Below are positions 15,925 through 46,584 of a stretch of 64,000 nucleotides of DNA, one piece after another (positions within the stretch are counted from its first letter, which is position 1; each line of letters opens with the position of its first letter). A model generated the notes under the pieces. That model was not told the origin of the DNA and did not search any database. It worked only from the letters and a program-made list of their open reading frames with translations. Origin of the DNA: Candidatus Woesearchaeota archaeon. Its GTDB lineage: Archaea > Nanobdellota > Nanobdellia > Woesearchaeales > DSVV01. The translations under genes were made by a program, and so were the position numbers. The stretch is taken from the NCBI GenBank assembly GCA_018303075.1, contig JAGVYW010000003.1, forward strand, positions 1,598 through 65,597, read 5' to 3'.

Positions 15925-18900
15925 CTATCCATTTACTGGTAATTCCATCTGATTGCTGCTTAAAATAGCAGCTAATTGCGGTGAGATAATTGGTTCTATT
16001 GCTGGAACAAGTGCTGGATTTATTGGAATTGCCTGCAGTTGCTGTCTTATGCGAAGCTTTGATGTAAGATCTGAAAATTTATTATAAGGAATTCCATTTT
16101 CGTCTTCTGTCTTTGTAAATAAGTAAGTCAATGAACTTGTAGATATTGGAATCATATTACAGTAAATATCCTGATCTGCCTGAGCAATTTTAGTACAGTC
16201 AATATTTTGATTGAATATGCCGATAATTGGATTGAAATAAATTATTGCCGTAAAATAACGAAGCGAATGGCTTCCTGTCTCTCCAGAGCTAGGATCCCAT
16301 TTTCTTTCTGTAATTCCAAATATCAATTGGTTTGCTGCAATGTTTTTTAGCAGATAGAAATTATTGAAATCTGCAATCTCAGCAATTATATCAGAACCTT
16401 GAAAACTCTTTGATTTAAATGCATCAAGCTCTTTTTGACTTGAATGTAATCCGATTAATGTATTTGCGAATCCTTTCAATTGGCTGTTGTGTTTATTATA
16501 ATTCTCCTGTATATCTTTTAAATTATTTATACCATTCTTATTATAGATAATTGCCTTTAGCTTGTTGTTGTAATAAAGATGTTCTGAACATTTCTTGTAG
16601 ATACCATAACGGGAGCTGTCTTCTTCTTTTATATCACATTTAGCTGCATCCTCATCAAAGAAATCCCCGCTTTTTACAAAGCCAAGTGTATTGAATAATT
16701 CTGTTGGATCAAATGTGATTGAATCTTGTTCTGTGTTTTCTGATTCAACCTTATTAACTGTAACACCAAGATAGGTTTGATCTTTGACCTTTAAAATACA
16801 GAAACTATTGACTGCATCTTTGATAAGAATATTTGCAGCTTCTGTTTCTGCTGATATAGAATTGTAATTTAATGTTTGGTCAGCTGGAGCACAATGCAAT
16901 GTGAATTCATTGTCTCCTGCGATGTCTAACAATTGTATTGCTAATACTTTTGTCCTGCTTGACCATTCTGCATTGACAAGCTGGTTGTTCTTGTAGACTG
17001 GCTCGCAGAGATGATCCTTGTGAAAAAAGAATTCTTTGTTAGTGCAGAGAGAGATACCCCCAGATTTCAATTCGAGGTCTTCTGCATATTCTTCGAGATT
17101 AAGCGAACCTTCTTTGATTGTTGTATATTTTTGATCACATTGATCTTCATCATCATATGCTGCGCTTGGACAAGCACATGAGAATGATTCTGTGCAAAGA
17201 TTGCTGCCGTCTTGTTTTAATGTTTCCAATTCAATTGTGTCATTGTACCAGTTATATTTTGGTGTTGGTTCTTTCCATTCTCCACCTTTGCAGATGTAGA
17301 ACTTACCATCTCCTGTTGTTTCAGATGATACTGCTTCCCCTTCACTAACACAATTTGGTCCATCTTCATCTTCTGCAGGATTCCAGCAGGAGTTTGCAAA
17401 ACAACAACTTGAATAATCATAAGAATCTTTATCTACCCATGGAACTGTGGAGAGTTTCATTGGAATCTCTTCGAGCTCTAAGTTCTTTGCTTTTGAATCT
17501 GTAAGAATTAACTCTTCTGCGGGATAACCTAGCTTTACTGCTGTTTTAAGTGCTTCTTTTTCTTCATCGCTTAAAGTATCTGTTTCTTTAATGTTGTCTT
17601 CATTAAACACTAAAAAAGTATTATCTGGCAAACATGCAGAAATATATTTGTTTGTATTATCAATTGCAATTCTTTTTGCTTGGCAAGTATTGTAGTTTCG
17701 TTCAAGAGAGAATAAAGGTTCTTCTTGAGGTTCTAAAGCATCATTGCTTGTGATAAAATGAAATGCTGATGGAATAATAGGTGTTATAGTTGCTGTTTGT
17801 AATGCATTACAAGTCCAGATTTTTCCTTTGACTGCGTAGTAGCCTTGTTTTGAATTATCATCAATTGGATCATTGAATGGTTTTGCATAATCAATGTAAG
17901 TTGATTTGACACAAGCGCCGTTTGGAATCTTTAAAAGATTGCCGTCAATACTGTCATGTGTTGGATTTTCTTCATTATAAGTTATTTCTTTTCTTTCTTT
18001 TGTTTCGTAATTAAATTCCTGCATACAACAACGAGAACCTGTCCATCTGCCACTTAAGTAGAAATTACAAACATTATGAAGATAAGGATCGAATTTATTT
18101 TCTTCTTCTGGAGATTTAAGATCTTCCTTTACATATTCAGGATTTTGGCGGAGAACTGCGGTATCTTCAGATTCTATGGTGAAATCAATATCACTCGTTG
18201 AACTTGTAATTTTTGCAGCTTCATCGAGAGTTATCCATTCAAAAACATCTCCTTTGCCTTGATCAAAGTAGTGATTGCAATAGAGTGGTACTTTTTTCTC
18301 CCCTAATTTATATAAACCTAAATCTGTTGTTCCTAATCCGCGCAGTTTAACTTTGTTTTTAGTTCCAAAGTTTCCTTTATCATAATCTTTTCGAGGATAT
18401 GGGTTGCTTGTACAACGATATGCACCTGTTTCTGAATCAATTATTTGTATTGGTTCTCCATATTCTTTGTTATCTACACCCTCAACAATAGTTGGATATA
18501 AACAGAGTTTTTCTTGATTAGAATAATCTACTATTTCTGTTTCCTCAGGATGATTCAATGATATCTTTTGCTTGTTTTCGTTATAATTAATTACTTTATT
18601 TGTCAACCATATATAATCGTCACCACAGCATGCAACTTTTGCATTGTTGTTAAAATTAGTAATACTTCCAATTTTTTGATTATCCATATATGTACCAATA
18701 CATTGATTAGAATTCCCATCCCAATCTACTTGGTACATAAATCCTGTTTCTTCACCAAACATTACTGCAGTTCCTAAATATTCTTTTTGATATGTTTTAA
18801 CCTCTTTTGTATATGTAATCTCTGGATTAGACTGAGATTCAACTGTTGTTTGTGTTGCTTCACCTGATCTTCCTGATAAACTAAAAACTCTTGGAATCTG

Positions 18901-28649: not shown

Positions 28650-30671
28650 ATGGAAGTAGCTGAACAAATAAGCAAGTTTCAAGAATTTCTGGAAATGCAT
28701 TATCATGCAAAATTACTAGAAATAGCACGATTAGGACAGAAGTTTATTGAGATTGATTTTGAAGAATTAAGCAAATTTTCTCCAGAATTAGTTGATGATT
28801 TAATAGAATACCCTGAAGAAACCATTAAAGCTTTTGAACTCTCTTGCAGCAATTTTGATCTCCCAAATGAAACAAAAGAGATTAGAATAAGAATATTTAA
28901 TCTAACTGCAGAGCAAAGAATTCTTATTAGAAATATTCGTTCAACACATATTGGAAAACTTATTTGGTTTGAAGGTGTTGTCAGGCAGAAGAGTGATGTA
29001 AGACCACAGGTTACCTCTGCACGATTTGAATGCCCTAGCTGCGGAAATATAATCACAGTATTACAACTAGATACAAAGTTTAAAGAACCAACACGCTGCG
29101 GCTGTGGAAGAAAAGGGAAATTCAGATTATTAACAAAAGAACTTGTTGATGCACAAGGTTTGGTACTTGAGGAATCCACAAAAGATCTAGATGGAGGGGA
29201 ACAACCAAAAAGAATCAATGTCTTCTTGAAAAATGATTTAGTTTCTCCAATATCTGAGAAAAGAACAAATCCTGGAAGTTCTGTTAGATTATCTGGGATT
29301 ATTAAAGAAGTACCAATCATATTAAAATCAGGAGGACAATCAACAAAATTTGACCTTATTGTTGAAGCAAATCATGTTGAAGCAATACAAGAAGATTATA
29401 CTAATATCAACATCTCAGAGGAAGAAGAAAAGAAAATACGAGAATTATCACAAGACCTAAAATTAATGGAAAAACTAACCCAGGCACTTGCTCCAGGAAT
29501 ATTTGGACATGATAGAATCAAAGAAGCTCTTTTGATGCAGTTTGCTGGAGGAGTGACTAAAACAAGAGATGATGGTGTAAAGACGAGAGGAGATATTCAC
29601 GTTCTTTTAATAGGAGACCCTGGTTCAGGAAAATCTCAGCTCCTTAAACGAGCATCTGTCGTTGCGCCTAAGTCAAGATACGTAAGCGGCAAGGGTACAT
29701 CCGGAGCAGGATTGACTGCTTCAGTTGTAAAAGATGAATTTCTCTCTGGATGGAGCCTAGAAGCAGGAGCAATTGTGCTTGCAAATCGCGGTGTATTGAT
29801 GATTGATGAATTAGATAAAATGAGCGATGATGACAGAAGTGCAATGCATGAAGCGCTTGAACAGCAAACAGTCTCTATATCCAAAGCAAATATCCAAGCA
29901 ACATTGCGATGTGAAACTACTGTGCTAGCGGCAGCAAATCCTAAATTTGGAAGATTTGATCCTTATGAAAATATTGCAAAACAAATAGATCTGCCTCCTG
30001 CATTAATCAACAGATTTGATCTTATCTTTACAATCAAAGATGTACCCAATGAAGAACGTGATGAGAGAATGGCAAAATTCATCCTAACAATGCATAAGGA
30101 GAAATTAACTGAAGAACCTGAAATTCCAACAGACTTACTTAGAAAATATCTTATCTATACACGACAAAAAATCTCTCCAATATTAACTGATGCTGCGCTT
30201 GATGAGCTTAAAGAATATTATGTTAAGATAAGATCAACAGGCACAAGCGAAGAATCTGCAATAAAATCAGTGCCAATATCTCCAAGACAATTGGAAGCAT
30301 TGATAAGACTTTCTGAAGCATCTGCTAAATTAAGATTGAGCGATAAGATCACAAAAAAGGATGCAAAAAAAGCTATTGCTATCTTAATGTATTGTTTAGA
30401 ACAAGTCGGATTAGATCCTGAAACTGGAAAGATAGATATTGATAAAATAACCTCTGGAATTACATCCTCTGAAAGAAGCAAGATTATAATTGTAAAAGAA
30501 ATTATCAATGAATTAGAAGTTAAGTTTGGAAAAATGATCCCTATTGAAGAAATTGTCAAGACAGCAGCTGAAAAGAATATTGATGCAGATAAAGTAGAAG
30601 AAACAATTGAAAAGCTAAAAAGAACAGGTGACTTGTTTGAACCAAAACCTGGAAAAGTGCAGAAGATCTAG
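28650..30671 (+). CDS. mcm: MCM replicative helicase
   Basis: Zinc finger CPSCGN..CGCG, Walker A IHVLLIGDPGSGKSQLLK, Walker B MIDELDKM, arginine finger region; 673 aa, no intein. Confidence 0.95.
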   Translation: MEVAEQISKFQEFLEMHYHAKLLEIARLGQKFIEIDFEELSKFSPELVDDLIEYPEETIKAFELSCSNFDLPNETKEIRIRIFNLTAEQRILIRNIRSTHIGKLIWFEGVVRQKSDVRPQVTSARFECPSCGNIITVLQLDTKFKEPTRCGCGRKGKFRLLTKELVDAQGLVLEESTKDLDGGEQPKRINVFLKNDLVSPISEKRTNPGSSVRLSGIIKEVPIILKSGGQSTKFDLIVEANHVEAIQEDYTNINISEEEEKKIRELSQDLKLMEKLTQALAPGIFGHDRIKEALLMQFAGGVTKTRDDGVKTRGDIHVLLIGDPGSGKSQLLKRASVVAPKSRYVSGKGTSGAGLTASVVKDEFLSGWSLEAGAIVLANRGVLMIDELDKMSDDDRSAMHEALEQQTVSISKANIQATLRCETTVLAAANPKFGRFDPYENIAKQIDLPPALINRFDLIFTIKDVPNEERDERMAKFILTMHKEKLTEEPEIPTDLLRKYLIYTRQKISPILTDAALDELKEYYVKIRSTGTSEESAIKSVPISPRQLEALIRLSEASAKLRLSDKITKKDAKKAIAILMYCLEQVGLDPETGKIDIDKITSGITSSERSKIIIVKEIINELEVKFGKMIPIEEIVKTAAEKNIDADKVEETIEKLKRTGDLFEPKPGKVQKI

Positions 30672-30749: not shown

Positions 30750-31433
30750 ATGGCGTCAAAAAGACAAGCTGCGTATATTATGAGCATTCATGATGTGTTA
30801 AAATTGCCATCCCTTTTTGAAGATAAAAATAATCTTCCAAAAGTAAATGTTGTAGGGATTGTTGTTTCTGTTGATATTGATCCACAAATAAGCACTGTTG
30901 TTGTAGATGATGGAACTTCTTCTATCGTATTGCGATTTTTTGAAATGCATGAACTATTGAATTCATTAACTATTGGAAATATTGTGAAAATAATAGGAAG
31001 TCCGAGATATTTACATAATGAGATATATGTTGTTCCTGAAATAATCAAAAAAATTGATAAGCATAAATGGATTGAATACAGAAATCTTGAGCTAAAAATA
31101 TTAAAGCCATTGTATGACTCATTATTACAAACACCATTGGTAGAACAACCTAAAGAAAATAATAACAATGATAAAATTACTGAAGAAACTGTCGTAGGAG
31201 ATATGATTGTAGAAGAAGAAGTTGTACAAAATGAAGAGATTAAGATTGAAAAAAGCGAGAATATCCTTGATAAAATATTAATAACTATAGCTAAACTTGA
31301 TACTGGAAAAGGAGCAGCATATGATGAACTTGTTTCTGCAATCAATCATCAAGATTGTGAAAAATTACTAAAGAAATTAATAGAGCAAGGCGAAATCTTT
31401 GAGGTAAAACCAGGAAGGATCAAGGTGCTGTAG
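30750..31433 (+). CDS. OB-fold plus C-terminal winged-helix protein, RPA32/Stn1-like ssDNA-binding subunit
   Basis: VNVVGIVVSV...VVVDDGTSSIVLRFFE OB-fold pattern; C-terminal ILITIAKLDTGKGAAYDELVSAI wH; directly downstream of mcm. Confidence 0.45.
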   Translation: MASKRQAAYIMSIHDVLKLPSLFEDKNNLPKVNVVGIVVSVDIDPQISTVVVDDGTSSIVLRFFEMHELLNSLTIGNIVKIIGSPRYLHNEIYVVPEIIKKIDKHKWIEYRNLELKILKPLYDSLLQTPLVEQPKENNNNDKITEETVVGDMIVEEEVVQNEEIKIEKSENILDKILITIAKLDTGKGAAYDELVSAINHQDCEKLLKKLIEQGEIFEVKPGRIKVL

Positions 31434-33208: not shown

Positions 33209-36200
33209 TTAAGGTAAGGATTCATTTTCATTCTGAGCAAGAGAACTAAACCATTTTCCCAAACCTTCTTGAACCTCTGCTTCTTTACCAAAAACACTTT
33301 CAATCCTTATTTTGAGAAGGCTTAATGTCTGTTTCAAATAAGGAGGGATGTTGAACTCTGCAGCTAAAGAAATACTTTTGTCAAGATATTTGACAACTGA
33401 GCCTTCACTTACTGTAAACAATAACTTACCTGAACATTTTGTGCACTTGCCTATCAAAGGAGGCCTGCGAAAGATCTCATTGCATTTTACACAGCGAAAA
33501 GCCTGCTGTGAAAATTTTCTAAGATTCCCTTTTGTATCTTTAAGAAAATGACGTTCAATCACTAATCTTGCAACATCTGTCTCATCAACTGCACGGATTA
33601 ATTTTGCTAACTCCATCTGACCATGTAATTTCTCATCCATTGAAGGCAATGCTTTATATGCTGAACATGCCACTCCTTGATTGATGTCAGAAGTATCATG
33701 TGTAAATCCCATCCCTTCATATTGTTTTTCAGTTCCAATCCTATGCTTAATCTGCTCAATCTTTACATCTCCTGCTGGCTTGTACTCAGCAGCTGCTTCA
33801 TAGAACTCAAGAGGATAAAACCAAGCAGTGTCTAACCCATGAGCTTGATCATCAACTTCTGAAGGATTTAATAATGATGTTAATACTAATGGAGCATCCA
33901 TTGTTTTTGCACCACGAGTGTTTGGCAGAAAATTGCTTGAAAAATTAAGCAAACAATCTAAAAGCATACTTACACTTGCTTCGTCACCATCACAGTCGCG
34001 TCTCAAAGATGCATGAAACAACGGATGCGCAAACATTGCCTGTGTTTTTGAAAAACCAATAATCCTTCCAACCATTCCTGAAGAGATGTGAGGAGCTAAT
34101 GCAAGAACTAACTGACCAACAAGATCTTGCTTTGAATTAAGATTATAATAAGAAGGTAGTTTATAAAAATCTTGCAATAAATCATCAATAAAGTTTGCAA
34201 CCCTAAATAATACTTCATATGATGTTTCATCCAATGCTTCCTTTGATGCTGGAAGAATAATATCTTGAGTCTTAATCTCAAGAACTTGATTTTCGTGTAT
34301 TAGCTCTTTCCCATTTATATCATGTGAGTAACCTAATTCTTTGAGTTTTTCTATTGAAGTAGCTATTTCTTTTGGTTTGAAATGAGTGATTGGCAGTTCT
34401 GACATGTCAAAACGAATTGTACCATCTTTATTAACATAGACATCATGTTTTGCACGAATAATCCCTTTGATAAGATTTTCAGGTATATGGTCTTTATTGC
34501 TTGTTCCACGTACACCTTTTATTAAATCTGGGTAATTTCTTGTCTGCAACCTTTTTAATGCTGAATTAATATATTCGTTGATATCAATCTCCTGCGATGT
34601 ATAAGTTTTTGCATTACCATGTACACATGATTCTTTCTCTATGACGCCACAGAGTTTACAAGAATATCTTTTTTCTGCAGTTGCATAACATTTATGACAT
34701 TTCTTATAAACTGTGTTCATATTGCATTGCACACAATAATAGATTGGAAAATCTGCATTTATCTTTCCAACGCCCATTGCAGATTGAAAACTCCTTAATC
34801 TTGCACCTTCTTCTCCTACTGGAAATAATACTTGTGGAGAACCATTTAGCTTACGCATCTTTGCTTTTTCTGGCCTGCCCATCCTTGCACCAATAAATGT
34901 TCCAGATTTATCCCTTATTCTTATTGAAAAAATATTGTTTATATTCTCTATCGTTGAGCTTGTTTCATCAAATGAGAATTTTGCAGAAGGACTGCAATAA
35001 TTATTTTTATACATTCCAAGAGTTGCAAGCATAGCTCGAGCATCTTCTTTTTCAATTACAATAAACTCATTATTTACAACTAAATGAGGCAATCCTATTA
35101 ACTCAAGTATTATTTTTAATCCACCATCAAAATTGAAAATAATCTTAATTATTTTGTTATCTTCTTGAATTATTTTTGCGCTGATTATATATTGAATCAA
35201 TTTACTTAATTGGTTTACAGTTATCAATCGCCAATGATAAGTGTAATAAGGATGTAATGGTATATCAAACTTTTCTGAAAGCATAAGTGCATCATTTGCT
35301 TTAATCGGAAAAAGCCTGTCATTTAACAGATTTTTAATAAGATCTTTAGAAACTCCTGAAAATTCAGACATCATCATTGCAATTGTCTCTGAATTATTCT
35401 CTGTATTGCAACTGCATTTTTCTCTTGCTGCTTTTTGAAGCTCTAACAACCACCATTCTTCATTATATCCACAAGGTACTAGTATGTGCCCATTTTCAGA
35501 AAAATCCCCATAACTAAATAAAATGTCACCCATAAATAAGATCTTATCAATATTTGGTAGATTGCTAACTGCAGCTTCAATTGTATTTATTCTTACAACT
35601 GAACTGTTTTTTAATCGAATGATTGGACCTTCAAGCTGATCACATGTTGTAATGGCAGAAGCCTTCCCTGGACGCTCCATCTTTAATTGTGTTGCAATTG
35701 CAATATATTTTCTTAATAAGTACATAGTTGCTGGATTAATTGCAGAAGCTGAAAATCCTGTTGTTCTTGCTCTTCCATAACGCAGACGAAAACCACCATC
35801 TCTCATAGGATATGTTAAGACAGGTCTTCCAGCAACTATATCTGCAATAAATGTATAATTTGGTGAAATCTTCTCTTTTTTTGTATCACCTGTTACTTTT
35901 TTTGCTTTTATTTGTTTTTGTAATCTGAGAAATTCATCTAGAAAATCCCATTCTAACTGCATCTCTTTGCCCCATTTCTCTAAACGTTTCCATATTTTTG
36001 CTGCTTTTTGTGCAAGTCCCTCTGCCATTACTAAGCAGATTCCACCACGAATCCTATTTGTTTCAATCCTTGGGATATCCTTAAAATTTGAAACTTCAAA
36101 TTTCTCTGTTGGATCACCATCAATCTGTATTGGTACATTTCTTGCAAGAAATTCTATCTCTTCTTGTGAAGGAAAATACTGCAGATTTGTTACACGTTCA

Positions 36201-36799
36201 TGATAATCAATTATCTCTGTCTTAAATCGTTTAATCTCATTTTCAGTAGGATCATATTTCGCATATCCCATCTTTACTCTAACATAATCTGTGATTAAAA
36301 GAGAAAATGCTGCTGCAGTTCCGCCAGCACCCCTGATCGGACCAGCATAACAAGGAGCAAAGTATTCTTCACCTGATGATGTTTTTTTAATCCGCAATTC
36401 AATAAATCCTTCTAAAGGAGCAGAAACAATCCCTCCTGTTTGATATGCAAATCCTGTTCTTATGCCTACTTCCATAGCTTCTTTTTTATCTTTAAAACTA
36501 CAAAACTTTTGTTCTGCAACTTCATGAGCAATAATTAAAGCTATTCTCCAATCTAAATGGGAATATAATTTTTCTAGTTCTAAGATCCTATTTGTTACAC
36601 CTGAACCTATTAATTGGGGTGCAACTACACTAATCAACCCTTCTACTCTTTCAGCCATATTTTTTGCCAATTTGATATCTACTTTTGGTTCTGGGTCAAA
36701 ATTTAATTGCCTTGCTGTTTGTGCAAGTTTATAACATTTTATTAGCTCTGCATCAATTGTTTGGAAATAATGCTGCATTTTTGCTGAACATACAACCAT
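33209..36799 (-). CDS. polD2: DNA polymerase D (PolD) large subunit DP2
   Basis: 1196 aa; catalytic DCDGDE, multiple CxxC zinc fingers; N-terminus from MQHYFQTIDAE (alt. start 36778) resembles Pyrococcus DP2. Confidence 0.9.
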   Translation of the reverse strand: MVVCSAKMQHYFQTIDAELIKCYKLAQTARQLNFDPEPKVDIKLAKNMAERVEGLISVVAPQLIGSGVTNRILELEKLYSHLDWRIALIIAHEVAEQKFCSFKDKKEAMEVGIRTGFAYQTGGIVSAPLEGFIELRIKKTSSGEEYFAPCYAGPIRGAGGTAAAFSLLITDYVRVKMGYAKYDPTENEIKRFKTEIIDYHERVTNLQYFPSQEEIEFLARNVPIQIDGDPTEKFEVSNFKDIPRIETNRIRGGICLVMAEGLAQKAAKIWKRLEKWGKEMQLEWDFLDEFLRLQKQIKAKKVTGDTKKEKISPNYTFIADIVAGRPVLTYPMRDGGFRLRYGRARTTGFSASAINPATMYLLRKYIAIATQLKMERPGKASAITTCDQLEGPIIRLKNSSVVRINTIEAAVSNLPNIDKILFMGDILFSYGDFSENGHILVPCGYNEEWWLLELQKAAREKCSCNTENNSETIAMMMSEFSGVSKDLIKNLLNDRLFPIKANDALMLSEKFDIPLHPYYTYHWRLITVNQLSKLIQYIISAKIIQEDNKIIKIIFNFDGGLKIILELIGLPHLVVNNEFIVIEKEDARAMLATLGMYKNNYCSPSAKFSFDETSSTIENINNIFSIRIRDKSGTFIGARMGRPEKAKMRKLNGSPQVLFPVGEEGARLRSFQSAMGVGKINADFPIYYCVQCNMNTVYKKCHKCYATAEKRYSCKLCGVIEKESCVHGNAKTYTSQEIDINEYINSALKRLQTRNYPDLIKGVRGTSNKDHIPENLIKGIIRAKHDVYVNKDGTIRFDMSELPITHFKPKEIATSIEKLKELGYSHDINGKELIHENQVLEIKTQDIILPASKEALDETSYEVLFRVANFIDDLLQDFYKLPSYYNLNSKQDLVGQLVLALAPHISSGMVGRIIGFSKTQAMFAHPLFHASLRRDCDGDEASVSMLLDCLLNFSSNFLPNTRGAKTMDAPLVLTSLLNPSEVDDQAHGLDTAWFYPLEFYEAAAEYKPAGDVKIEQIKHRIGTEKQYEGMGFTHDTSDINQGVACSAYKALPSMDEKLHGQMELAKLIRAVDETDVARLVIERHFLKDTKGNLRKFSQQAFRCVKCNEIFRRPPLIGKCTKCSGKLLFTVSEGSVVKYLDKSISLAAEFNIPPYLKQTLSLLKIRIESVFGKEAEVQEGLGKWFSSLAQNENESLP

Positions 36800-36808
36800 G
36801 TATTCACC

Positions 36809-38281
36809 TTAAAATTTTAAAATTCTTACTTCTCTTGTTTGCAGATTAATTATTGGTACTCTGCAAGGCTCAGGATGATGGCCCATCTTTTCCTGAAATT
36901 TTGTTGTGTCCTGCCAACAAGAACTTGAAACTAATGTAATATTTCTATAATTCGAAGCTGAAACCTTATGAAGATGACCTGTACAAAATAGATCTGGCAC
37001 CATTGTGATAACAGCTGGATCAAACTCTGTCTCTGGAATATATAATGTTGCTGAATGTGTTGGAGCAAGATGACGTTTTTGAAGCAAAAACTTCATAACC
37101 AAATCTGCCCTGTCATATCCCCCATTGTTTCTAACCTCATCAATATTTGCAATGAAATAATCAAAACTATAACCGTGATACATCAAAACATCTATTCCTG
37201 CAAATGTTTCTGTTGCAGCTATGTTTACTATTGCAGGATTGCTTACAAAAAAAGCATTTTTTAGCTGATATAATTCTTTTGCAAACTCTTTGTCGAGCTG
37301 AGGCTGAGGCTCGCATAATCTTACAGCATCGTGATTTCCAGGACAAATAATCATACTTATATGATTTGGTACTTTCTCCAGCAGTTTTGCCAATGCTATA
37401 TATTGCTGTGTTATATCAGTTATTAGTAATTCTTTTTCTTGCGCTGGATAAATACCTACGCCATCAACTAAATCACCTACTATAAAGAGATATTTTATCT
37501 TTTCTGCTATTTTTTTGTATGTTTCATTTCCTATTTCGCTATTGAGAAAACAAATAAATTTCTTAAACTGTTCTTCTAAAAAGAAACGTGAACCTGTATG
37601 AATATCTGATATAAATACAGCATATTCTTCTTCAGGAGCTTTTTTTAATTCTTTGCTTAAAGGAATGTCAGGCAAGAATAAAGAAGAGATGTAAATTACT
37701 TTATTTTTTGGAAGCCCAACAATACCTATAATCTCATCCAATACTAGATTTTTTGCAAGTTCATACATCTCTGGCTTGTTTTTATTTATTATCGCTATGA
37801 TCTCTCCAGATGGGTCTTCTAATTTAATAACAATATTATTGTTTTTTGTAATTGTCTTTTCAATGATTATACCAATAATCGCAATCTGTTCTTTTTCTGT
37901 CTTTGAAAATATTTTGTTAATAGAAATAGCTGCTGATAATTCCATACGATTTAATAGAATCTTTTTTATCTGCTGGTAACGTTTATTATAATAAGTAATA
38001 AAATCTGCTACTGTTCTTTTTTTTGATTGTTCTGTGTAACTTACAACTATTTTTACTTTTCTTTCTTGTGATTTTTGATTGATTGCTGAGTTGTTTTCTT
38101 GAAGATATAAATTAATCTCATTCAGCAGAACTTCTTCATCTTGAGGTTTTGTAGAAAAATTATTATAAAAATTATCAAAATTGAAATTTTCAGGTATTGC
38201 ATTAAGAACTTGTTCAGTAACTAAAACTTCATTTTCTAATAATGATTTTACAAGTTTTGATCTTTGTTGAGAGAGCATCAT
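36809..38281 (-). CDS. polD1: DNA polymerase D small subunit DP1 (calcineurin-like phosphoesterase exonuclease)
   Basis: CPGNHD and GHxH phosphoesterase motifs, N-terminal OB region; 10-bp from DP2. Confidence 0.85.
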   Translation of the reverse strand: MMLSQQRSKLVKSLLENEVLVTEQVLNAIPENFNFDNFYNNFSTKPQDEEVLLNEINLYLQENNSAINQKSQERKVKIVVSYTEQSKKRTVADFITYYNKRYQQIKKILLNRMELSAAISINKIFSKTEKEQIAIIGIIIEKTITKNNNIVIKLEDPSGEIIAIINKNKPEMYELAKNLVLDEIIGIVGLPKNKVIYISSLFLPDIPLSKELKKAPEEEYAVFISDIHTGSRFFLEEQFKKFICFLNSEIGNETYKKIAEKIKYLFIVGDLVDGVGIYPAQEKELLITDITQQYIALAKLLEKVPNHISMIICPGNHDAVRLCEPQPQLDKEFAKELYQLKNAFFVSNPAIVNIAATETFAGIDVLMYHGYSFDYFIANIDEVRNNGGYDRADLVMKFLLQKRHLAPTHSATLYIPETEFDPAVITMVPDLFCTGHLHKVSASNYRNITLVSSSCWQDTTKFQEKMGHHPEPCRVPIINLQTREVRILKF

Positions 38282-38284
38282 AAA

Positions 38285-39493
38285 TTATAAATCTAGTGAT
38301 TGTTCCAATACAGAACGTATCTTTGGCAATACAGTTAATGGTATAGCTAAGGTAATGTCTCTTGTCCTTCCAAATCTTCCTTTAGAAATGACTTTTGCAT
38401 TTATGATGCCAAGCATGTCTAATTCTGAGATAATATCTGATAATCTACGCTGCGTTAATGGACGAAGAGCTATCTTTTCGCAAATTTCTGCATATAATGC
38501 ATAAACATCTCCTGTAAAAATAGCTCCTATTCTCTTTGCAGCAATATATACTATTGCAAGCAATGCTGCCTGCTGCTGCTTTGGCTGAGTTTTTACTATA
38601 TCTAATACCCTATCACGTTCTATCTTTTCTTCTGCTTCATCAATATCTGTTAACTCAATCTTTTCCTTTCCAGCTCTTTCTGCTAATTCTCCAGCTACAC
38701 GTAAAAGTTCCAATGCTCTTCTTGCATCACCATGTTCACGAGCAGCATATGCAGAACATTTTTCAATAACCCCTTCCCCTATAACACTTTCTTTGAATGC
38801 TAGTTTTGATCTCTTATGAAGAATGTCTTGCAATTGTATTGCATTATAAGGGGGAAAGATAATTTCTTCTTCACTTAATGATGATTTCACTCTTGGATCA
38901 ATATGATCTGTAAAGAGAAGATCATTTGATATTCCGATAATACTTATCTGACTATTTTTTAATTCACTATTAACTCTAGTTAAATTATAAATTATGCCAT
39001 CTCCTGCTTTTTTTACTAATTGGTCAATCTCATCTAATATAATTATTACTATTTGTTTTTTTGATTCTAATATAGTGTAAAATACCTTATATATCTCTTC
39101 TGTCGGTAATCCTGTTGCTGGAATCTCTTTACCTAAATCTCTTGATAATTGTGCAATGAGCCTGTATTCAGTATCTGCTATTTTATTAAGTTTACAATTA
39201 AGATAAAGTATTGTAATTGGAATATTTCTTTGCTCTGCAACTTGAAGAATTTTGGCAGTTGTGTATCTTGCTGTTAATGTTTTTCCTGTACCTGTTTTTC
39301 CATATAAAAAAACATTAGATGGACGATCTACACGTAAAGCTGGTGCAAGGATGTTTGCTAGCTGCTTTATTTCATTATCCCTATGAACAATCGCAGAAGG
39401 TGTGTAGGAAGATTGTAAGACCTTCTTTTCTTGGAATAAAGACTCTTTGTTTAAAAAATCTTCAAATAGCCCAGTTATCCCCTTTTCAATCAT
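38285..39493 (-). CDS. cdc6: Orc1/Cdc6 replication initiator
   Basis: Walker A LYGKTGTGKTLTARY, AAA+ sensor motifs, C-terminal winged helix; 3 bp from DP1, so a cdc6-dp1-dp2 operon as in Pyrococcus. Confidence 0.9.
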   Translation of the reverse strand: MIEKGITGLFEDFLNKESLFQEKKVLQSSYTPSAIVHRDNEIKQLANILAPALRVDRPSNVFLYGKTGTGKTLTARYTTAKILQVAEQRNIPITILYLNCKLNKIADTEYRLIAQLSRDLGKEIPATGLPTEEIYKVFYTILESKKQIVIIILDEIDQLVKKAGDGIIYNLTRVNSELKNSQISIIGISNDLLFTDHIDPRVKSSLSEEEIIFPPYNAIQLQDILHKRSKLAFKESVIGEGVIEKCSAYAAREHGDARRALELLRVAGELAERAGKEKIELTDIDEAEEKIERDRVLDIVKTQPKQQQAALLAIVYIAAKRIGAIFTGDVYALYAEICEKIALRPLTQRRLSDIISELDMLGIINAKVISKGRFGRTRDITLAIPLTVLPKIRSVLEQSLDL

Positions 39494-39550
39494 GAATTTC
39501 CATAAGAAACCTAGGTAATATAAATGTTGTGGTTTTGGTTAAAGGAGTGA

Positions 39551-39571
39551 CCCCTTGAGTTCCGATGGAAC
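39551..39571 (-). repeat. ORB1 (minus orientation GTTCCATCGGAACTCAAGGGG)
   Basis: 19/21 identical to ORB2 in inverted orientation. Confidence 0.85.
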
Positions 39572-39905
39572 TTTTTGTTTTTTGTGAGTGAAAACTTGTT
39601 TTTTGTATTTTTTGTTTGTTCGCTTTGTTTACAATACAAAAAATGTTGTAATTTTTTTAATTTCTTTTTATGATGAAGTATTATGTATGAACTATAGTTT
39701 GATTTTATTTTTTTAGATGACAATTGTTTGTTTTTTTATTGTTTTTATTATATCCTATCATTTTTATTAAGTATTATATATAATATAATATATATAATTG
39801 TATATTTATTTTAGATATATAAAATTAATATTTTTTATTTTTTATAAAGTAATAAAAAAATAGATTTTTTGTTAAAATGGAATAGGTTTTTTCATAGGAA
39901 ATGAT

Positions 39906-39926
39906 TTTCCATAGGAACTCAAGGGG
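39906..39926 (+). repeat. ORB2 (TTTCCATAGGAACTCAAGGGG)
   Basis: Inverted partner of ORB1; matches euryarchaeal ORB logic (TTCCAnnGGAA + CTC..GGGG). Confidence 0.85.
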
Positions 39927-39986
39927 TAGGTAGATGGAATATAATTTAATCTTAAAAATATTTGTCTTACAACAAAGAGTGTTTTT

Positions 39987-40370
39987 TTACAAATACCGCT
40001 TTGGTCTTGGACTCTGTGATATCTGAGTCCTGTTCTTAAAAAGTTCATCAGAAAAATTAATTGCTTTTTCTAAACCTATAACTCCACAAAGGTTTGCTCC
40101 CTGAAGATTTGCTTCAGAAAAGTCTGTTTCAATTGCTTTAACAAAAGGAAGATATAGATTCTTTGCTATTATCACTCTAAGGCTAGAATTGCTTAAATCT
40201 ATTGGCTCTTCCCTATGATTACAAGATTTAAGATATTTTTGCATTTCATTATAACGTTCATAAGAAGATAAGTTAATATCATCTAATCCAATTCCAACAA
40301 AATATTTTTCTCCAGCTAAAACTTTTTGGATAAATTCTGCTACACCCATCCTAATTAATTTTTCTATCAT
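39987..40370 (-). CDS. small protein with pentapeptide-repeat-like C-terminus (ANLQGANLCGV)
   Basis: Only 2-3 pentapeptide units visible. Confidence 0.3.
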   Translation of the reverse strand: MIEKLIRMGVAEFIQKVLAGEKYFVGIGLDDINLSSYERYNEMQKYLKSCNHREEPIDLSNSSLRVIIAKNLYLPFVKAIETDFSEANLQGANLCGVIGLEKAINFSDELFKNRTQISQSPRPKRYL

Positions 40371-40505
40371 TATCAGAGAAAAGTAAAACTTATATATAAA
40401 TATTTTTGTTTTGTAGTTACTAGTAAATAATAATAAACCTTTTTATAGTAGCGTATTATAATTTTAATTATTTAGATTTATTAGTTAAGTTTATTATAAA
40501 GGAGG

Positions 40506-40775
40506 ATGTTTTATATGGCAATTACTGATCCATTAGAAGTTGTTATTCTTTCAATTATAGTTGGTACATTAGCTGCGATTGTGTATAGTTTACGAGTATT
40601 GGTTATTCTTGAACGAAGAATTGCTCGTATGGATTTAAATGTTGAGCGGATAGCACGCAAAATTGCAGCTGAAGAAATGAAGATTGAAGAAGAAGAAGCA
40701 AAAATATTAGCAGAGCAAAGAATGATTGAAGCAAAGCTTGGAATTAAACCTAAAAATGCTAAAAAGAAGAAATAA
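40506..40775 (+). CDS. membrane-anchored coiled-coil protein with Lys-rich tail
   Basis: N-terminal TM ILSIIVGTLAAIVYSL then EEMKIEEEEAKILAEQRMIEAKL. Confidence 0.4.
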   Translation: MFYMAITDPLEVVILSIIVGTLAAIVYSLRVLVILERRIARMDLNVERIARKIAAEEMKIEEEEAKILAEQRMIEAKLGIKPKNAKKKK

Positions 40776-40870
40776 CTTAAAAAATTGCGAACTGCGTTCA
40801 GCAATTTTTAGTTTTTTATTATTCTTGGATTATTCTTATTATATAAATGTATATTTGTAAAATAAATAGA

Positions 40871-41749
40871 TTATAGTTTTTCTGCAATAATATCAGCAAC
40901 ACTTATCTTGTTTGTTTTATGCACTATTGTGTTTGTTGTGATTATTTCTTTATAATATTTTTTTAATTTAGGATAACAATTGTCTGCAAATATACCATGT
41001 ACTACAATTGCTGCAAGATTGTTGTATCCTTTGTTTCTGAAAAATTTTCCAATATATAATAAAGTGACACCACTACTGATGATATCGTCAATTATTATTA
41101 TTTTCTGAGTTTTTGGAATCTGTTCAAGCTCTTTTGTGGTGTAAATCTTTACTTTTGTTCCACTATAGCGAACTTTGTTAAGTATAATTGCTTTTGCTCC
41201 AATGTTGTCTGCTATTGTTTTTGCCCATTGGTATGATTCACCATCAGGACCAATTATAAATGGAGATTTATAATTTTTTCTGATATAATTTTCAATATTT
41301 TTTATTGCTGTAAGAGTTACTGTTTTTGTGGTATATACTTGACTTAATTTTTTAATCCTATGCAAGTGCGGGTCAATTGTAATAAGTTTGTCAATATATC
41401 TTGATAGTAGTTGTGCAATTATTTTTGCAGAAATACCCTGACCTCGTTTGAATTGTCTGTCTTGGCGCATGTAACAAAGGTAAGGTGCAATCAAAGTTAT
41501 TTTTTGTGCACTATTATTTTTACATGCTTCACAAGTAAAAATAATATCAATTAATTTTTGGTTTGGTTCATTGAGTGAAGCAATGAGAATAACTTCAGCG
41601 TTTTTTACTTGTGTTGGTATTGTTATAATTGTTTCTTGATCTGGAAGTGTTGTTTTATTCACTATAAATATAGGTAATTTTTTGATTTTTGAAATTTCTT
41701 TTGCTAGAGAAAGAGAATAATCAAAACTCAATAAGATTTTTTTCATCAT
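40871..41749 (-). CDS. prs: ribose-phosphate pyrophosphokinase (PRPP synthase)
   Basis: PRPP-binding IIIDDIISSGVTLL and N-terminal Prs core. Confidence 0.8.
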   Translation of the reverse strand: MMKKILLSFDYSLSLAKEISKIKKLPIFIVNKTTLPDQETIITIPTQVKNAEVILIASLNEPNQKLIDIIFTCEACKNNSAQKITLIAPYLCYMRQDRQFKRGQGISAKIIAQLLSRYIDKLITIDPHLHRIKKLSQVYTTKTVTLTAIKNIENYIRKNYKSPFIIGPDGESYQWAKTIADNIGAKAIILNKVRYSGTKVKIYTTKELEQIPKTQKIIIIDDIISSGVTLLYIGKFFRNKGYNNLAAIVVHGIFADNCYPKLKKYYKEIITTNTIVHKTNKISVADIIAEKL

Positions 41750-41799: not shown

Positions 41800-42195
41800 T
41801 TAAAACTTTCCAATCAATTCTTCAAACAATAATCCTTTTTGTTTGATATAATCTGTTGCAATGACATAATTATTGCTTTTTGTCTGCTGGATATCATCTA
41901 AACTCAAAAAATACCATTCATAATTGTTAAAACGTATACCAAACCATGCTTCTGCACCAAATAAAGCAGCATATGTTTTAATTTGATCAATGTCTTCTTG
42001 GAGTAGATAGATAGAGTTGTTTTTGCTAGCTTTGCATTCAATTGCTAGTTTTCTTATAATGTTTCCTGCAACTATGTCAGGAGAAGGATATTTGTTTGAG
42101 CCAGAACCAGCTGTTCTTATAGCTGTCCAATTATTTTTCCAAAACAAATGAATGAGTTCACGTTCTGCATTGATTCCTTTAGATTTATGGCTCAT
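41800..42195 (-). CDS. hjc: Holliday junction resolvase Hjc
   Basis: GINAERELIHLFW...AIRTAGSG...PDIVAG...LAIECKASK collinear with archaeal Hjc. Confidence 0.85.
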   Translation of the reverse strand: MSHKSKGINAERELIHLFWKNNWTAIRTAGSGSNKYPSPDIVAGNIIRKLAIECKASKNNSIYLLQEDIDQIKTYAALFGAEAWFGIRFNNYEWYFLSLDDIQQTKSNNYVIATDYIKQKGLLFEELIGKF

Positions 42196-42500: not shown

Positions 42501-42737
42501 TTAATTTGTTTTTGTAGCCAGCTTTATATCGCCAGATTTAATTGTTTTTCTACCAGCATGTTTTGCAAGGCGAACAGCGTTTATAGCAATTTCGTCTGCT
42601 TTATCTTCTATGATGTTTTTTAAAGCAATCTTTGCCTTATCTGAGACTCTTTCAGCTCCACATTTCTTTAATATCTTTTCCATGGCTGCCAATGGCAGTA
42701 AACGTTTTACACTGGTCATGATTTTGCCCCAAAACAA
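42501..42737 (-). CDS. archaeal histone (HMf-like histone fold)
   Basis: [61 protein letters not shown] matches HMfB (…AGAERVSDDA…[21 protein letters not shown]). Confidence 0.85.
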
Positions 42738-45546: not shown

Positions 45547-46584
45547 TTGGGGATAGCATTTAAAGATCTGCTTATTGCAAAAGAAATAAATATAGATTAT
45601 CTACAGAATAAAATTGTTGCAGTTGATACTAATAATTTACTTTATCAGTTTTTGACAACTATACGTTCTCGTGATGGTACTGTGCTTACTGATTCTCAAG
45701 GCCACACAACTTCACATCTTGTCGGTATGTTTTCAAGAACAACAAGTTTGATGCAAAAGGGAATAAAATTTATCTTTGTATTTGACGGTGAATATCCTGC
45801 TTTAAAGAAAAAAGAGCAAGAAAGGAGATATGAGATTAAGAAAGAGGCACAGCAGGCATATGAGGTTGCAAAAGAGAGAGAGGATATTGATGCAATGAAA
45901 AAGTATGCTTCAAGAACAGCATATTTAACTGCTGAGATGAAACAAGAAGCCAAAGAATTAATATCTGCATTAGGATTTCCTGTCGTCGATGCGCCAAGCG
46001 AGGGAGAAGCACAGGTTGCGGAGTTAGTAAAAGAAGGAAAGGCTTATGCAGCAGTTTCCCAGGATTATGATACTTTGCTGTATTCTACACCTTTTCTGAT
46101 ACGCAATCTGTCAATTGCAGGCAAAAGAAAAAAAGCAAATACTTTAGCTTATACAACAGTTGAGCCAGAAATGCTTAGCTTAAGTGATAATTTGAATGCT
46201 CTTGGAATTGATAAAGAACAATTGATTGCATTAGCAATGCTGATAGGAACAGATTATAATTACGGCGGAATACATGGAATTGGACCAAAAAAGGCTTTGA
46301 AGCTTGTTAAAGAGCATGGGCATAAGTTTGATGAGATGTTTAATTCTGTAAAATGGAGTGAAAGCTTTTCTGTCTCTTGGAAAGAGGTGTATGATACTTT
46401 TTTGCACTTGCCAGTGCAAAAAAATCTTAAGATTGAATATTCTGAATTGAATCAGGAAAGGTTGTATATGTTATTATGTGATAAACATGATTTTTCCAGA
46501 GAAAGAGTAGATTCAGCATTTGGAAAACTAGCTGATGTTGCTAAAGATAAAAAGCAGAAAGGGCTTGGAGAATTTTTTCACTAA
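45547..46584 (+). CDS. fen: flap endonuclease FEN1
   Basis: MGIAFKDLL...VDTNNLLYQF N-domain, I-domain and PIP-like C-terminus (QKGLGEFF). Confidence 0.9.
   Translation: MGIAFKDLLIAKEINIDYLQNKIVAVDTNNLLYQFLTTIRSRDGTVLTDSQGHTTSHLVGMFSRTTSLMQKGIKFIFVFDGEYPALKKKEQERRYEIKKEAQQAYEVAKEREDIDAMKKYASRTAYLTAEMKQEAKELISALGFPVVDAPSEGEAQVAELVKEGKAYAAVSQDYDTLLYSTPFLIRNLSIAGKRKKANTLAYTTVEPEMLSLSDNLNALGIDKEQLIALAMLIGTDYNYGGIHGIGPKKALKLVKEHGHKFDEMFNSVKWSESFSVSWKEVYDTFLHLPVQKNLKIEYSELNQERLYMLLCDKHDFSRERVDSAFGKLADVAKDKKQKGLGEFFH

Follow-up and report, generated by a model that had tools for sequence, protein, structure and literature searches.

Where does replication of the chromosome begin in a woesearchaeotal genome? 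We address this question for the region at positions 39494-39986 of a 64,000-nucleotide stretch of DNA from Candidatus Woesearchaeota archaeon (assembly GCA_018303075.1, contig JAGVYW010000003.1, positions 1,598 to 65,597 of the forward strand), which was analyzed at its full length and is called the window below. A first-pass annotation had claimed a chromosomal oriC here, with an inverted pair of origin recognition boxes (ORBs) upstream of cdc6-dp1-dp2, and our data bear this out: the boxes are unique in the 64 kb, and the architecture is conserved in relatives. We consider it highly probable that the region is an Orc1-dependent chromosomal replication origin of the oriC1 type, initiation itself being what we infer. 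The argument is carried by the elements themselves, by their statistical significance, polarity and conservation, and by the identity of the initiator and its DNA-contact residues.

Two boxes frame the region. Their 21-nt cores, GTTCCATCGGAACTCAAGGGG on the minus strand at 39551-39571 (ORB1) and TTTCCATAGGAACTCAAGGGG on the plus strand at 39906-39926 (ORB2), are inverted relative to each other and identical at 19 of 21 positions, as the first-pass annotation had stated with these same coordinates. Since a conserved T extends both boxes, we took the sites as 23 nt long (Table 1). No inverted pair that a repeat finder returned for the region is longer than ORB1 and ORB2, whose 21-nt arms are 95% complementary and 336 nt apart. 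Each box contains the dyad TTCCA-N2-GGAA, followed 6 nt on by a G-string, and both match the published ORB consensus, GTTCCAGTGGAAAC-AAA----GGGGG (PMC1868953). Upstream of orc1, at 56-78 nt from the ATG, ORB1 is oriented towards the gene. CCCC at 39551-39554 and GGGG at 39923-39926 are located at the outer ends of the pair, with the dyads facing the spacer. When both strands of the 64 kb were searched for TTCCATNGGAACTCAAGGGG with up to three mismatches, only ORB1 and ORB2 were matched; 0.01 matches are expected, and none of 100 shuffles gave two.

Smaller sites accompany the full boxes. A 14-nt mini-box matrix scanned over the whole window gave six matches, four of them inside the 430-bp origin region, at 39497-39510 (+), 39558-39571 (-), 39889-39902 (+) and 39906-39919 (+). 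The third of these, which lacks a G-string, stands in tandem with ORB2 at a distance of 3 nt, and tandem distal boxes also occur in several relatives. Extra half-sites had been proposed previously: TTCATAGGAAA is found where it was placed (39891-39901), and TTCCATAAGAAAC needs a new position, 39498-39510 in place of 39517.

Between the boxes lies the presumed duplex unwinding element. Its A+T-richness had been recognized correctly, its length overstated by one base pair (335 bp, against 334 bp by our count). The plus strand of this spacer is 54% T and 31% A, and the average A+T content of the window is 68.5%. Among all 334-nt stretches of the window, the spacer has both the highest A+T content and the lowest nearest-neighbour stability, and its weakest 100 nt are those at 39762-39861. 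No Rfam match with an E value of 1 or less was obtained in 38500-41000, and no tRNA genes were found in the window. A 70-aa open reading frame with a TTG start at 39511-39723 (-), spanning ORB1 and spacer, was judged spurious.

Comparison with related genomes allowed us to ask which of these features are kept. The related set comprised 80 genome loci encoding an Orc1 that is 57-69% identical to that of the window, and all loci were scanned with a 23-nt box matrix built from 27 sites, the consensus of which is (G/T)TTCCAyAGGAAAT-nAA-GGGGT. A strict box pattern occurs on the orc1-sense strand just upstream of orc1 in 19 of the 80 loci. At a threshold of 14 bits, the 1.5 kb upstream of orc1 has a 76-fold higher density of matches than the remaining sequence (149 versus 15). 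At 18 bits, 68 of 87 matches fall within 500 nt of the ATG, a count that covers the 50 loci whose flanks are complete. Of the 63 loci for which 1 kb or more of upstream sequence was available, 47 have an inverted box pair (46 of 62 relatives, plus the window); in these 47, the proximal box lies 30-270 nt before orc1 and points at the gene, and the distal box is inverted. Sense boxes are proximal and antisense boxes distal, with the G-strings directed outward in 48 of the 50 loci that have both. The spacers of the 47 pairs range from 90 to 992 nt (median, 252 nt), and their median A+T content is 82%, compared with 62% for whole loci. On the other side of the initiator gene, DP1 lies directly downstream of orc1 in 76 of 77 loci, and DP2 follows downstream on the same strand in 68 of 68.

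The closest relative (L081; 86% Orc1 identity) is particularly informative. Its proximal box, TATA box and ATG-adjoining mini-box align with those of the window, and its distal box is present but further off, while the spacer is otherwise unalignable with that of the window. Boxes that are kept around a spacer whose sequence has diverged argue for functional protein-binding sites surrounding a region that is constrained only in composition, and this pattern of conservation excludes both chance and a mobile element as the source of the repeats. The two boxes of the window read GGAACT (39558-39571 and 39906-39919) where the family consensus has GGAAAT, and the same change is present in the box at -83 of one relative (L051); the shared substitution suggests that both sites change together with their initiator.

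Composition within the spacers is also patterned. In the 47 spacers, the 40 nt beside the distal box are T-rich and the 40 nt beside the proximal box are A-rich on the orc1-sense strand, resulting in a mirror-image A/T asymmetry with medians of +0.24 on the distal side and -0.33 on the proximal side (Wilcoxon p=2e-7). The spacer of the window follows this asymmetry on the proximal side only.

The initiator encoded beside the boxes is of the matching type. The window Orc1 scores 513 bits against the NCBIfam ORC1 equivalog NF001625 (cut-off, 501), and among solved structures it is closest to S. solfataricus Orc1-1 (2QBY_A, E=8e-105), followed by A. pernix ORC1 (2V1U, E=1e-92), both of which were crystallised on ORB DNA. 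In Orc1-1, the residues mutated as DNA contacts are the initiator-specific motif (ISM) pair G120/L121, the recognition-helix residue R341 and the wing residue R365; according to the accessible part of that study, the dissociation constant (Kd) rises 15-fold or more in the two arginine mutants listed and less strongly, from 0.39 to 0.6-2.2 uM, in two ISM double mutants (PMC3089459, Dueber et al. 2011). By alignment, the counterparts of these contacts in the window Orc1 are G128/L129, R349 and R373, all of which are invariant in 23 Woesearchaeota homologues. At the level of sequence, every testable feature of an Orc1-dependent archaeal origin is present.

The explanation that competes best with an active origin is that the boxes are Orc1 operators only, controlling the orc1-DP1-DP2 operon, or that they mark a dormant origin, with replication starting elsewhere in either case. 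We regard this as unlikely, even though overlap of the boxes with the promoter is certain: the TATA box is separated from the ATG by a mini-box and has ORB1 about 25 nt upstream of it. Several observations do weigh against an active origin. Dormant origins that bear ORBs exist in haloarchaea, as described for Haloferax mediterranei in the accessible portion of one report (PMC4595724). A palindrome carried by about half of the related origins, which is discussed below, is only degenerate in the window. The skew data do not help either. The cumulative G-C minimum of the window, which covers 64 kb of a contig of about 71 kb, falls at 39141, 0.4 kb from the origin, and the skew is -0.029 on its left and +0.042 on its right, but the left flank consists mostly of minus-strand genes, which confounds this minimum, and strand-separated values are inconsistent in the window, so that the skew favours neither side. 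When 298 flanking genes of the relatives were pooled, a sample biased by recurring syntenic families, co-directional genes had a lower coding-strand GC skew than head-on genes (0.083 versus 0.164, p=1e-4), which is the direction opposite to the bacterial leading-strand pattern. Since the same syntenic gene families recur in the pooled sample, we treat skew as uninformative. For another DPANN archaeon with a closed genome, whole-genome GC skew places the origin next to cdc6 (PMC5905446).

Against the boxes being operators only, a promoter has no need of another full box, inverted and 335 nt upstream, or of the least stable DNA of the window in between, yet the inverted geometry, the outward G-strings and the A+T-rich spacer are kept in 47 of the 63 loci. 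Furthermore, ORC1 is single-copy across Nanobdellota (preprint 10.64898/2026.05.13.725050), and therefore no other Orc1-type origin is expected, which speaks against operators only and against a dormant origin alike.

A mobile element would account for the repeats differently: the 21-bp inverted repeats would be the terminal inverted repeats of a miniature inverted-repeat transposable element that had inserted upstream of orc1. The outline is indeed similar, with inverted ends of about 21 bp round a 334-bp A+T-rich noncoding interior. However, no further copies of the ends exist in the 64 kb, even at three mismatches, and the outer edges show neither a target-site duplication nor a flanking direct repeat. 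In addition, the boxes occupy the same place relative to orc1 in genomes whose Orc1 has diverged to 57-70% identity and whose spacer sequences are unrelated, and the repeat fits the pan-archaeal ORB consensus. We consider insertion of such an element to be effectively refuted. Finally, a chance inverted repeat, in DNA that would hold nothing but the orc1 promoter and the upstream gene's terminator, might be suggested by the position between the 3' end of the gene at 39987-40370 (-) and the 5' end of orc1 and by how common A+T-rich intergenic DNA is in this genome, but it is refuted by the two matches observed where 0.01 were expected, by the conservation statistics of the related loci and by the repeat itself, which contains G+C and borders the A+T-rich block instead of lying inside it.

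How, then, might an active origin at this locus work? Model archaea provide the basis for the following scenario, in which Orc1 binding, MCM loading, firing and autoregulation would proceed as they do there. One Orc1 monomer would occupy each inverted box, its winged-helix domain resting on the TTCCA-N2-GGAA dyad on the spacer side and the ISM of its AAA+ domain on the GGGG on the outer side. With the dyads inward and the G-strings outward, two bound initiators would thus face each other across the spacer. The bound pair may bend and underwind the DNA, and Orc1 would recruit MCM hexamers, encoded 9 kb away, onto the 334-bp spacer. Melting would begin in the TATATA-rich core, most easily around 39762-39861, and bidirectional forks would leave the spacer. 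By the same homology with model archaea that underlies these steps from binding to fork, the mini-box beside ORB2 may hold a second Orc1.

The other mini-box points to a regulatory role. The TATA box of orc1 lies at a spacing from the ATG that implies a leaderless or nearly leaderless mRNA, and the mini-box between the two looks, from this position, like an autoregulatory operator rather than a part of the unwinding apparatus. This promoter layout recurs among relatives. Within 60 nt upstream of the orc1 ATG, 82 loci contain 52 matches to TTTAWAW, 41 of which start at -34 to -27, and many loci carry the module TTTAWAW-ACCT-n3-TTTCnnnTGGAA-n3-5-ATG; a mini-box of at least 9 bits is found within 60 nt of the ATG in 28 of the 82. 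In some relatives, about 20 nt containing GGGGGT are interposed between the promoter module and the ATG, forming either a full sense-oriented box or a Shine-Dalgarno-like leader. The simplest reading of a dyad mini-box over the orc1 transcription start is presumably autorepression by Orc1, judging from the layout and by analogy with other replicator-initiator pairs. In this scenario, the mini-box at the orc1 start, which lacks a G-string, would let Orc1 repress its own promoter, and such autorepression would couple the supply of the initiator, together with that of the co-transcribed PolD genes, to occupancy of the origin.

Among known origins, oriC1 of Sulfolobus/Saccharolobus resembles the window origin in having full ORBs with dyad and G-string, on each of which a single monomer of the Orc1-1 class binds in a defined polarity, as we predict for the window (Robinson et al. 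2004; Dhanaraju et al. 2025, PMC12141716). There, too, two inverted boxes flank an A+T-rich unwinding element beside orc1-1, and the window initiator is closest to Sso Orc1-1 among solved structures. Each inverted box of Sulfolobus oriC1 is individually required (PMC12141716), and opposite box polarity sets the winged-helix domains face to face across the unwinding element, the site of MCM loading (PMC6742236). The geometry in the window fits this model of facing winged-helix domains (PMC6742236; PMC12141716). The two origins differ in size, however, as the whole Sulfolobus region from ORB3 through the duplex unwinding element to ORB2 measures about 130 bp, compared with the 334 bp of the window spacer alone. 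Midway between its inverted boxes, Sulfolobus carries the essential 11-bp ucm motif, ATTATACAAAC (PMC12141716). With up to one mismatch, this motif is absent from the window origin and has a single match in the window, at 17650; the mid-spacer palindrome of the relatives is similar to ucm in position but unrelated in sequence. Moreover, the window organism is a DPANN archaeon with PolD, whereas Crenarchaeota, to our knowledge, lack this polymerase.

In Pyrococcus abyssi and Pyrococcus furiosus, a single cdc6 likewise adjoins the origin among replication genes, and ORB-type repeats are present (Myllykallio et al. 2000; Matsunaga et al. 2001, 2003; PMC4010727). That origin was validated by two-dimensional gels, initiation-point mapping and chromatin immunoprecipitation, whereas the window origin is predicted from sequence. 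The Pyrococcus origin spans about 0.8 kb and contains two long ORBs and many mini-ORBs; the window, which represents another phylum, has two full and two mini boxes. As for gene order, cdc6 is followed in Pyrococcus by the two PolD subunit genes. The first-pass annotation had called the arrangement Pyrococcus-type, and this holds for the order of the genes but not for the euryarchaeal kinship that it implied. All close homologues of the window Orc1 come from Woesearchaeota or Nanoarchaeota assemblies, which makes the genome that of a DPANN archaeon and not of a euryarchaeon, and the resemblance to Pyrococcus is thus one of gene order rather than kinship.

Haloarchaea offer a third comparison. 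In oriC1m of Haloarcula hispanica, as in the window, inverted boxes surround an A+T-rich region and carry their G-strings at the outer ends (Wu et al. 2014, PMC3936714). Both boxes of H. hispanica oriC1 are required, the two G-strings are essential, and the AAA+ domain contacts the G-string (PMC3936714). Unlike this origin, that of the window has neither the lengthened G-string specific to halophiles nor an inner G-rich inverted repeat, and haloarchaeal genomes further differ in having many cdc6 paralogues and several origins. Bacterial oriC-dnaA loci are similar in outline, since the initiator gene has the binding sites of its product beside it, together with an A+T-rich unwinding element, with boxes in its own promoter and autoregulation. 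However, initiator, box sequence and helicase-loading chemistry are unrelated, and the likeness is one of analogy only.

The replicator-initiator pair of the oriC1 type is a broadly conserved class that is probably ancestral in archaea (PMC4010727). The literature that we searched yielded no ORB or origin analyses for DPANN archaea or Woesearchaeota; in one study, 208 closed Nanobdellota genomes were rotated to ORC1 as "the origin", with the origin DNA left unexamined (preprint 10.64898/2026.05.13.725050). The window origin is canonical, of the oriC1 type and built on a known plan; it is useful for annotation, unsurprising and changes no concept. We know of no DPANN archaeon with an experimentally mapped origin. 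The window locus and its 80 relatives justify the convention of rotating genomes to orc1, and the ancestral Orc1-1/ORB replicator would be intact in these reduced, probably symbiotic archaea. The box consensus and architecture can be used for origin annotation, so that closed genomes can be oriented and checked, and the position of the origin can anchor growth-rate estimates from peak-to-trough coverage in metagenomes.

Many of the related origins carry a further element. When the 47 spacers between ORBs were screened for k-mers, the palindrome TTTTCTATATAGAAAA(TAA) emerged. The sequence CTATATAGA occurs in 13 of these spacers, with 0.1 expected, and a matrix search at a threshold of at least 14 bits found the palindrome in 25 of the 47 (for example, at L042:5872-5891, L066:5841-5860 and L062:5877-5896). 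Its position is constrained as well: the palindrome is never less than 33 nt from the nearest box, usually lies 0.35-0.6 of the way across the spacer, and is at the exact centre of the two shortest spacers (90 nt). The mirror-image change from T-rich to A-rich DNA described above is centred on it. One relative (L007) has a second perfect copy, ATTTTCTATATAGAAAATAA, at L007:1278-1293, -4.7 kb from orc1.

The window itself has a degenerate copy (Table 1), with a score that is reached by 3-6% of shuffled spacers. When the spacer is compared with that of the closest relative, L081, a single local alignment is significant (p about 0.007), and this copy lies at its centre. No good copy is found elsewhere in the window. 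The exact 19-mer, when searched for in metagenome contigs, returned 80 loci, 14 of which are in an orc1 or ORB context (12 with orc1 and a box, and two short contigs with boxes only); the remaining loci are heterogeneous and apparently unrelated. The exact 19-mer is thus enriched at origins but not diagnostic on its own. We tentatively raise the possibility, which we think rather doubtful, that the palindrome is a third, previously undescribed cis-element bound by an origin factor that separates or positions the two MCM hexamers. It would then be an analogue of ucm/UBP, and the element would be decaying in the window lineage at 39806-39825. Such decay would imply that the factor is dispensable in this lineage or of changed specificity.

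The features of the origin and the replication genes of the window are collected in Table 1. As had been proposed, orc1/cdc6 forms an operon with both PolD subunit genes, the gaps between the three being 3 and 9 nt. The further replication genes that had been noted nearby, those for MCM, Hjc, a histone and FEN1, are all present within 9 kb; the RPA32-like label given to another neighbour could not be retained, as the protein encoded at 30750-31433 has an OB-fold match at threshold level only.

Table 1. Coordinates of origin elements and replication genes in the window
Feature	Coordinates	Strand	Remarks
ORB1, proximal origin recognition box	39549-39571	-	GTTCCATCGGAACTCAAGGGGTC; 33.6 bits (23-nt matrix)
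ORB2, distal origin recognition box	39906-39928	+	TTTCCATAGGAACTCAAGGGGTA; 33.1 bits (23-nt matrix)
Spacer, presumed duplex unwinding element	39572-39905		334 bp, 85.0% A+T
Mini-ORB without G-string	39889-39902	+	TTTTCATAGGAAAT; 14.9 bits (14-nt matrix)
Mini-ORB between TATA box and orc1 ATG	39497-39510	+	TTTCCATAAGAAAC; presumed Orc1 operator
TATA box of orc1	39518-39524	-	TTTATAT, -31 to -25 from ATG
Degenerate palindrome copy	39806-39825	-	ATTTTATATATCTAAAATAA; 7.3 bits, weak evidence
orc1/cdc6, Orc1-1 class	38285-39493	-	402 aa; Cdc6_C, Cdc6_lid and AAA domains
PolD small subunit DP1	36809-38281	-	Starts 3 nt after orc1 stop codon
PolD large subunit DP2	33209-36799	-	9 nt after DP1
MCM, helicase presumed to be loaded at origin	28650-30671	+	MCM, MCM_OB, MCM_lid, MCM_N, MCM_WH_arc; 9 kb from origin
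Hjc	41800-42195	-	
Histone	42501-42737	-	
FEN1	45547-46584	+	Passes TIGR03674 equivalog

On the distal side of ORB2, the gene at 39987-40370 (-) encodes a 127-aa protein with a marginal pentapeptide-repeat match and no NCBIfam match. This gene is missing from L081, which has a 686-nt intergenic region (L081:4037-4722) instead, so that the distal edge of the origin varies in its gene content.

The composition of the spacer also has a practical consequence. Fourteen of the 80 contigs (L003, L006, L008, L009, L010, L018, L020, L027, L028, L041, L047, L049, L053 and L074) stop 85-275 nt upstream of the orc1 ATG, and in three other assemblies whose Orc1 is identical to that of the window (L083-L085), this distance is 51-429 nt. 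It is evidently within the A+T-rich spacer of the origin that short-read assemblies break, and an A+T-rich origin explains why such breaks are frequent just upstream of orc1.

A further box occurs on its own in some of the relatives. This near-perfect lone box, GTTCCAcAGGAAATnAAGGGGTC, is located 3.2-5.8 kb upstream of orc1 (L023:269, L048:833-880, L055:185, L067:1067, L068:2195, L069:833, L079:2837 and L058:1947) and scores 28-39 bits, with seven of the eight at 35 bits or more. No inverted partner is found in these loci, and the window has no counterpart of the lone box. Directly after its G-string follows a short tandem repeat, C/A-rich on the box strand, that varies by genome: (CATT)n, (AATC)n, (CCGAACAATG)n, (CCAACAGACAAA)n or (CACG)n. 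The DNA round the lone box does not exceed the remainder of the locus in A+T content (100-nt bins reach up to 84% but are mostly at 60-75%), and in L048 the box lies inside a 219-aa open reading frame without a Pfam match. The lone box and its repeat might serve as an additional Orc1 site or as a titration locus, or might encode a repeat protein.

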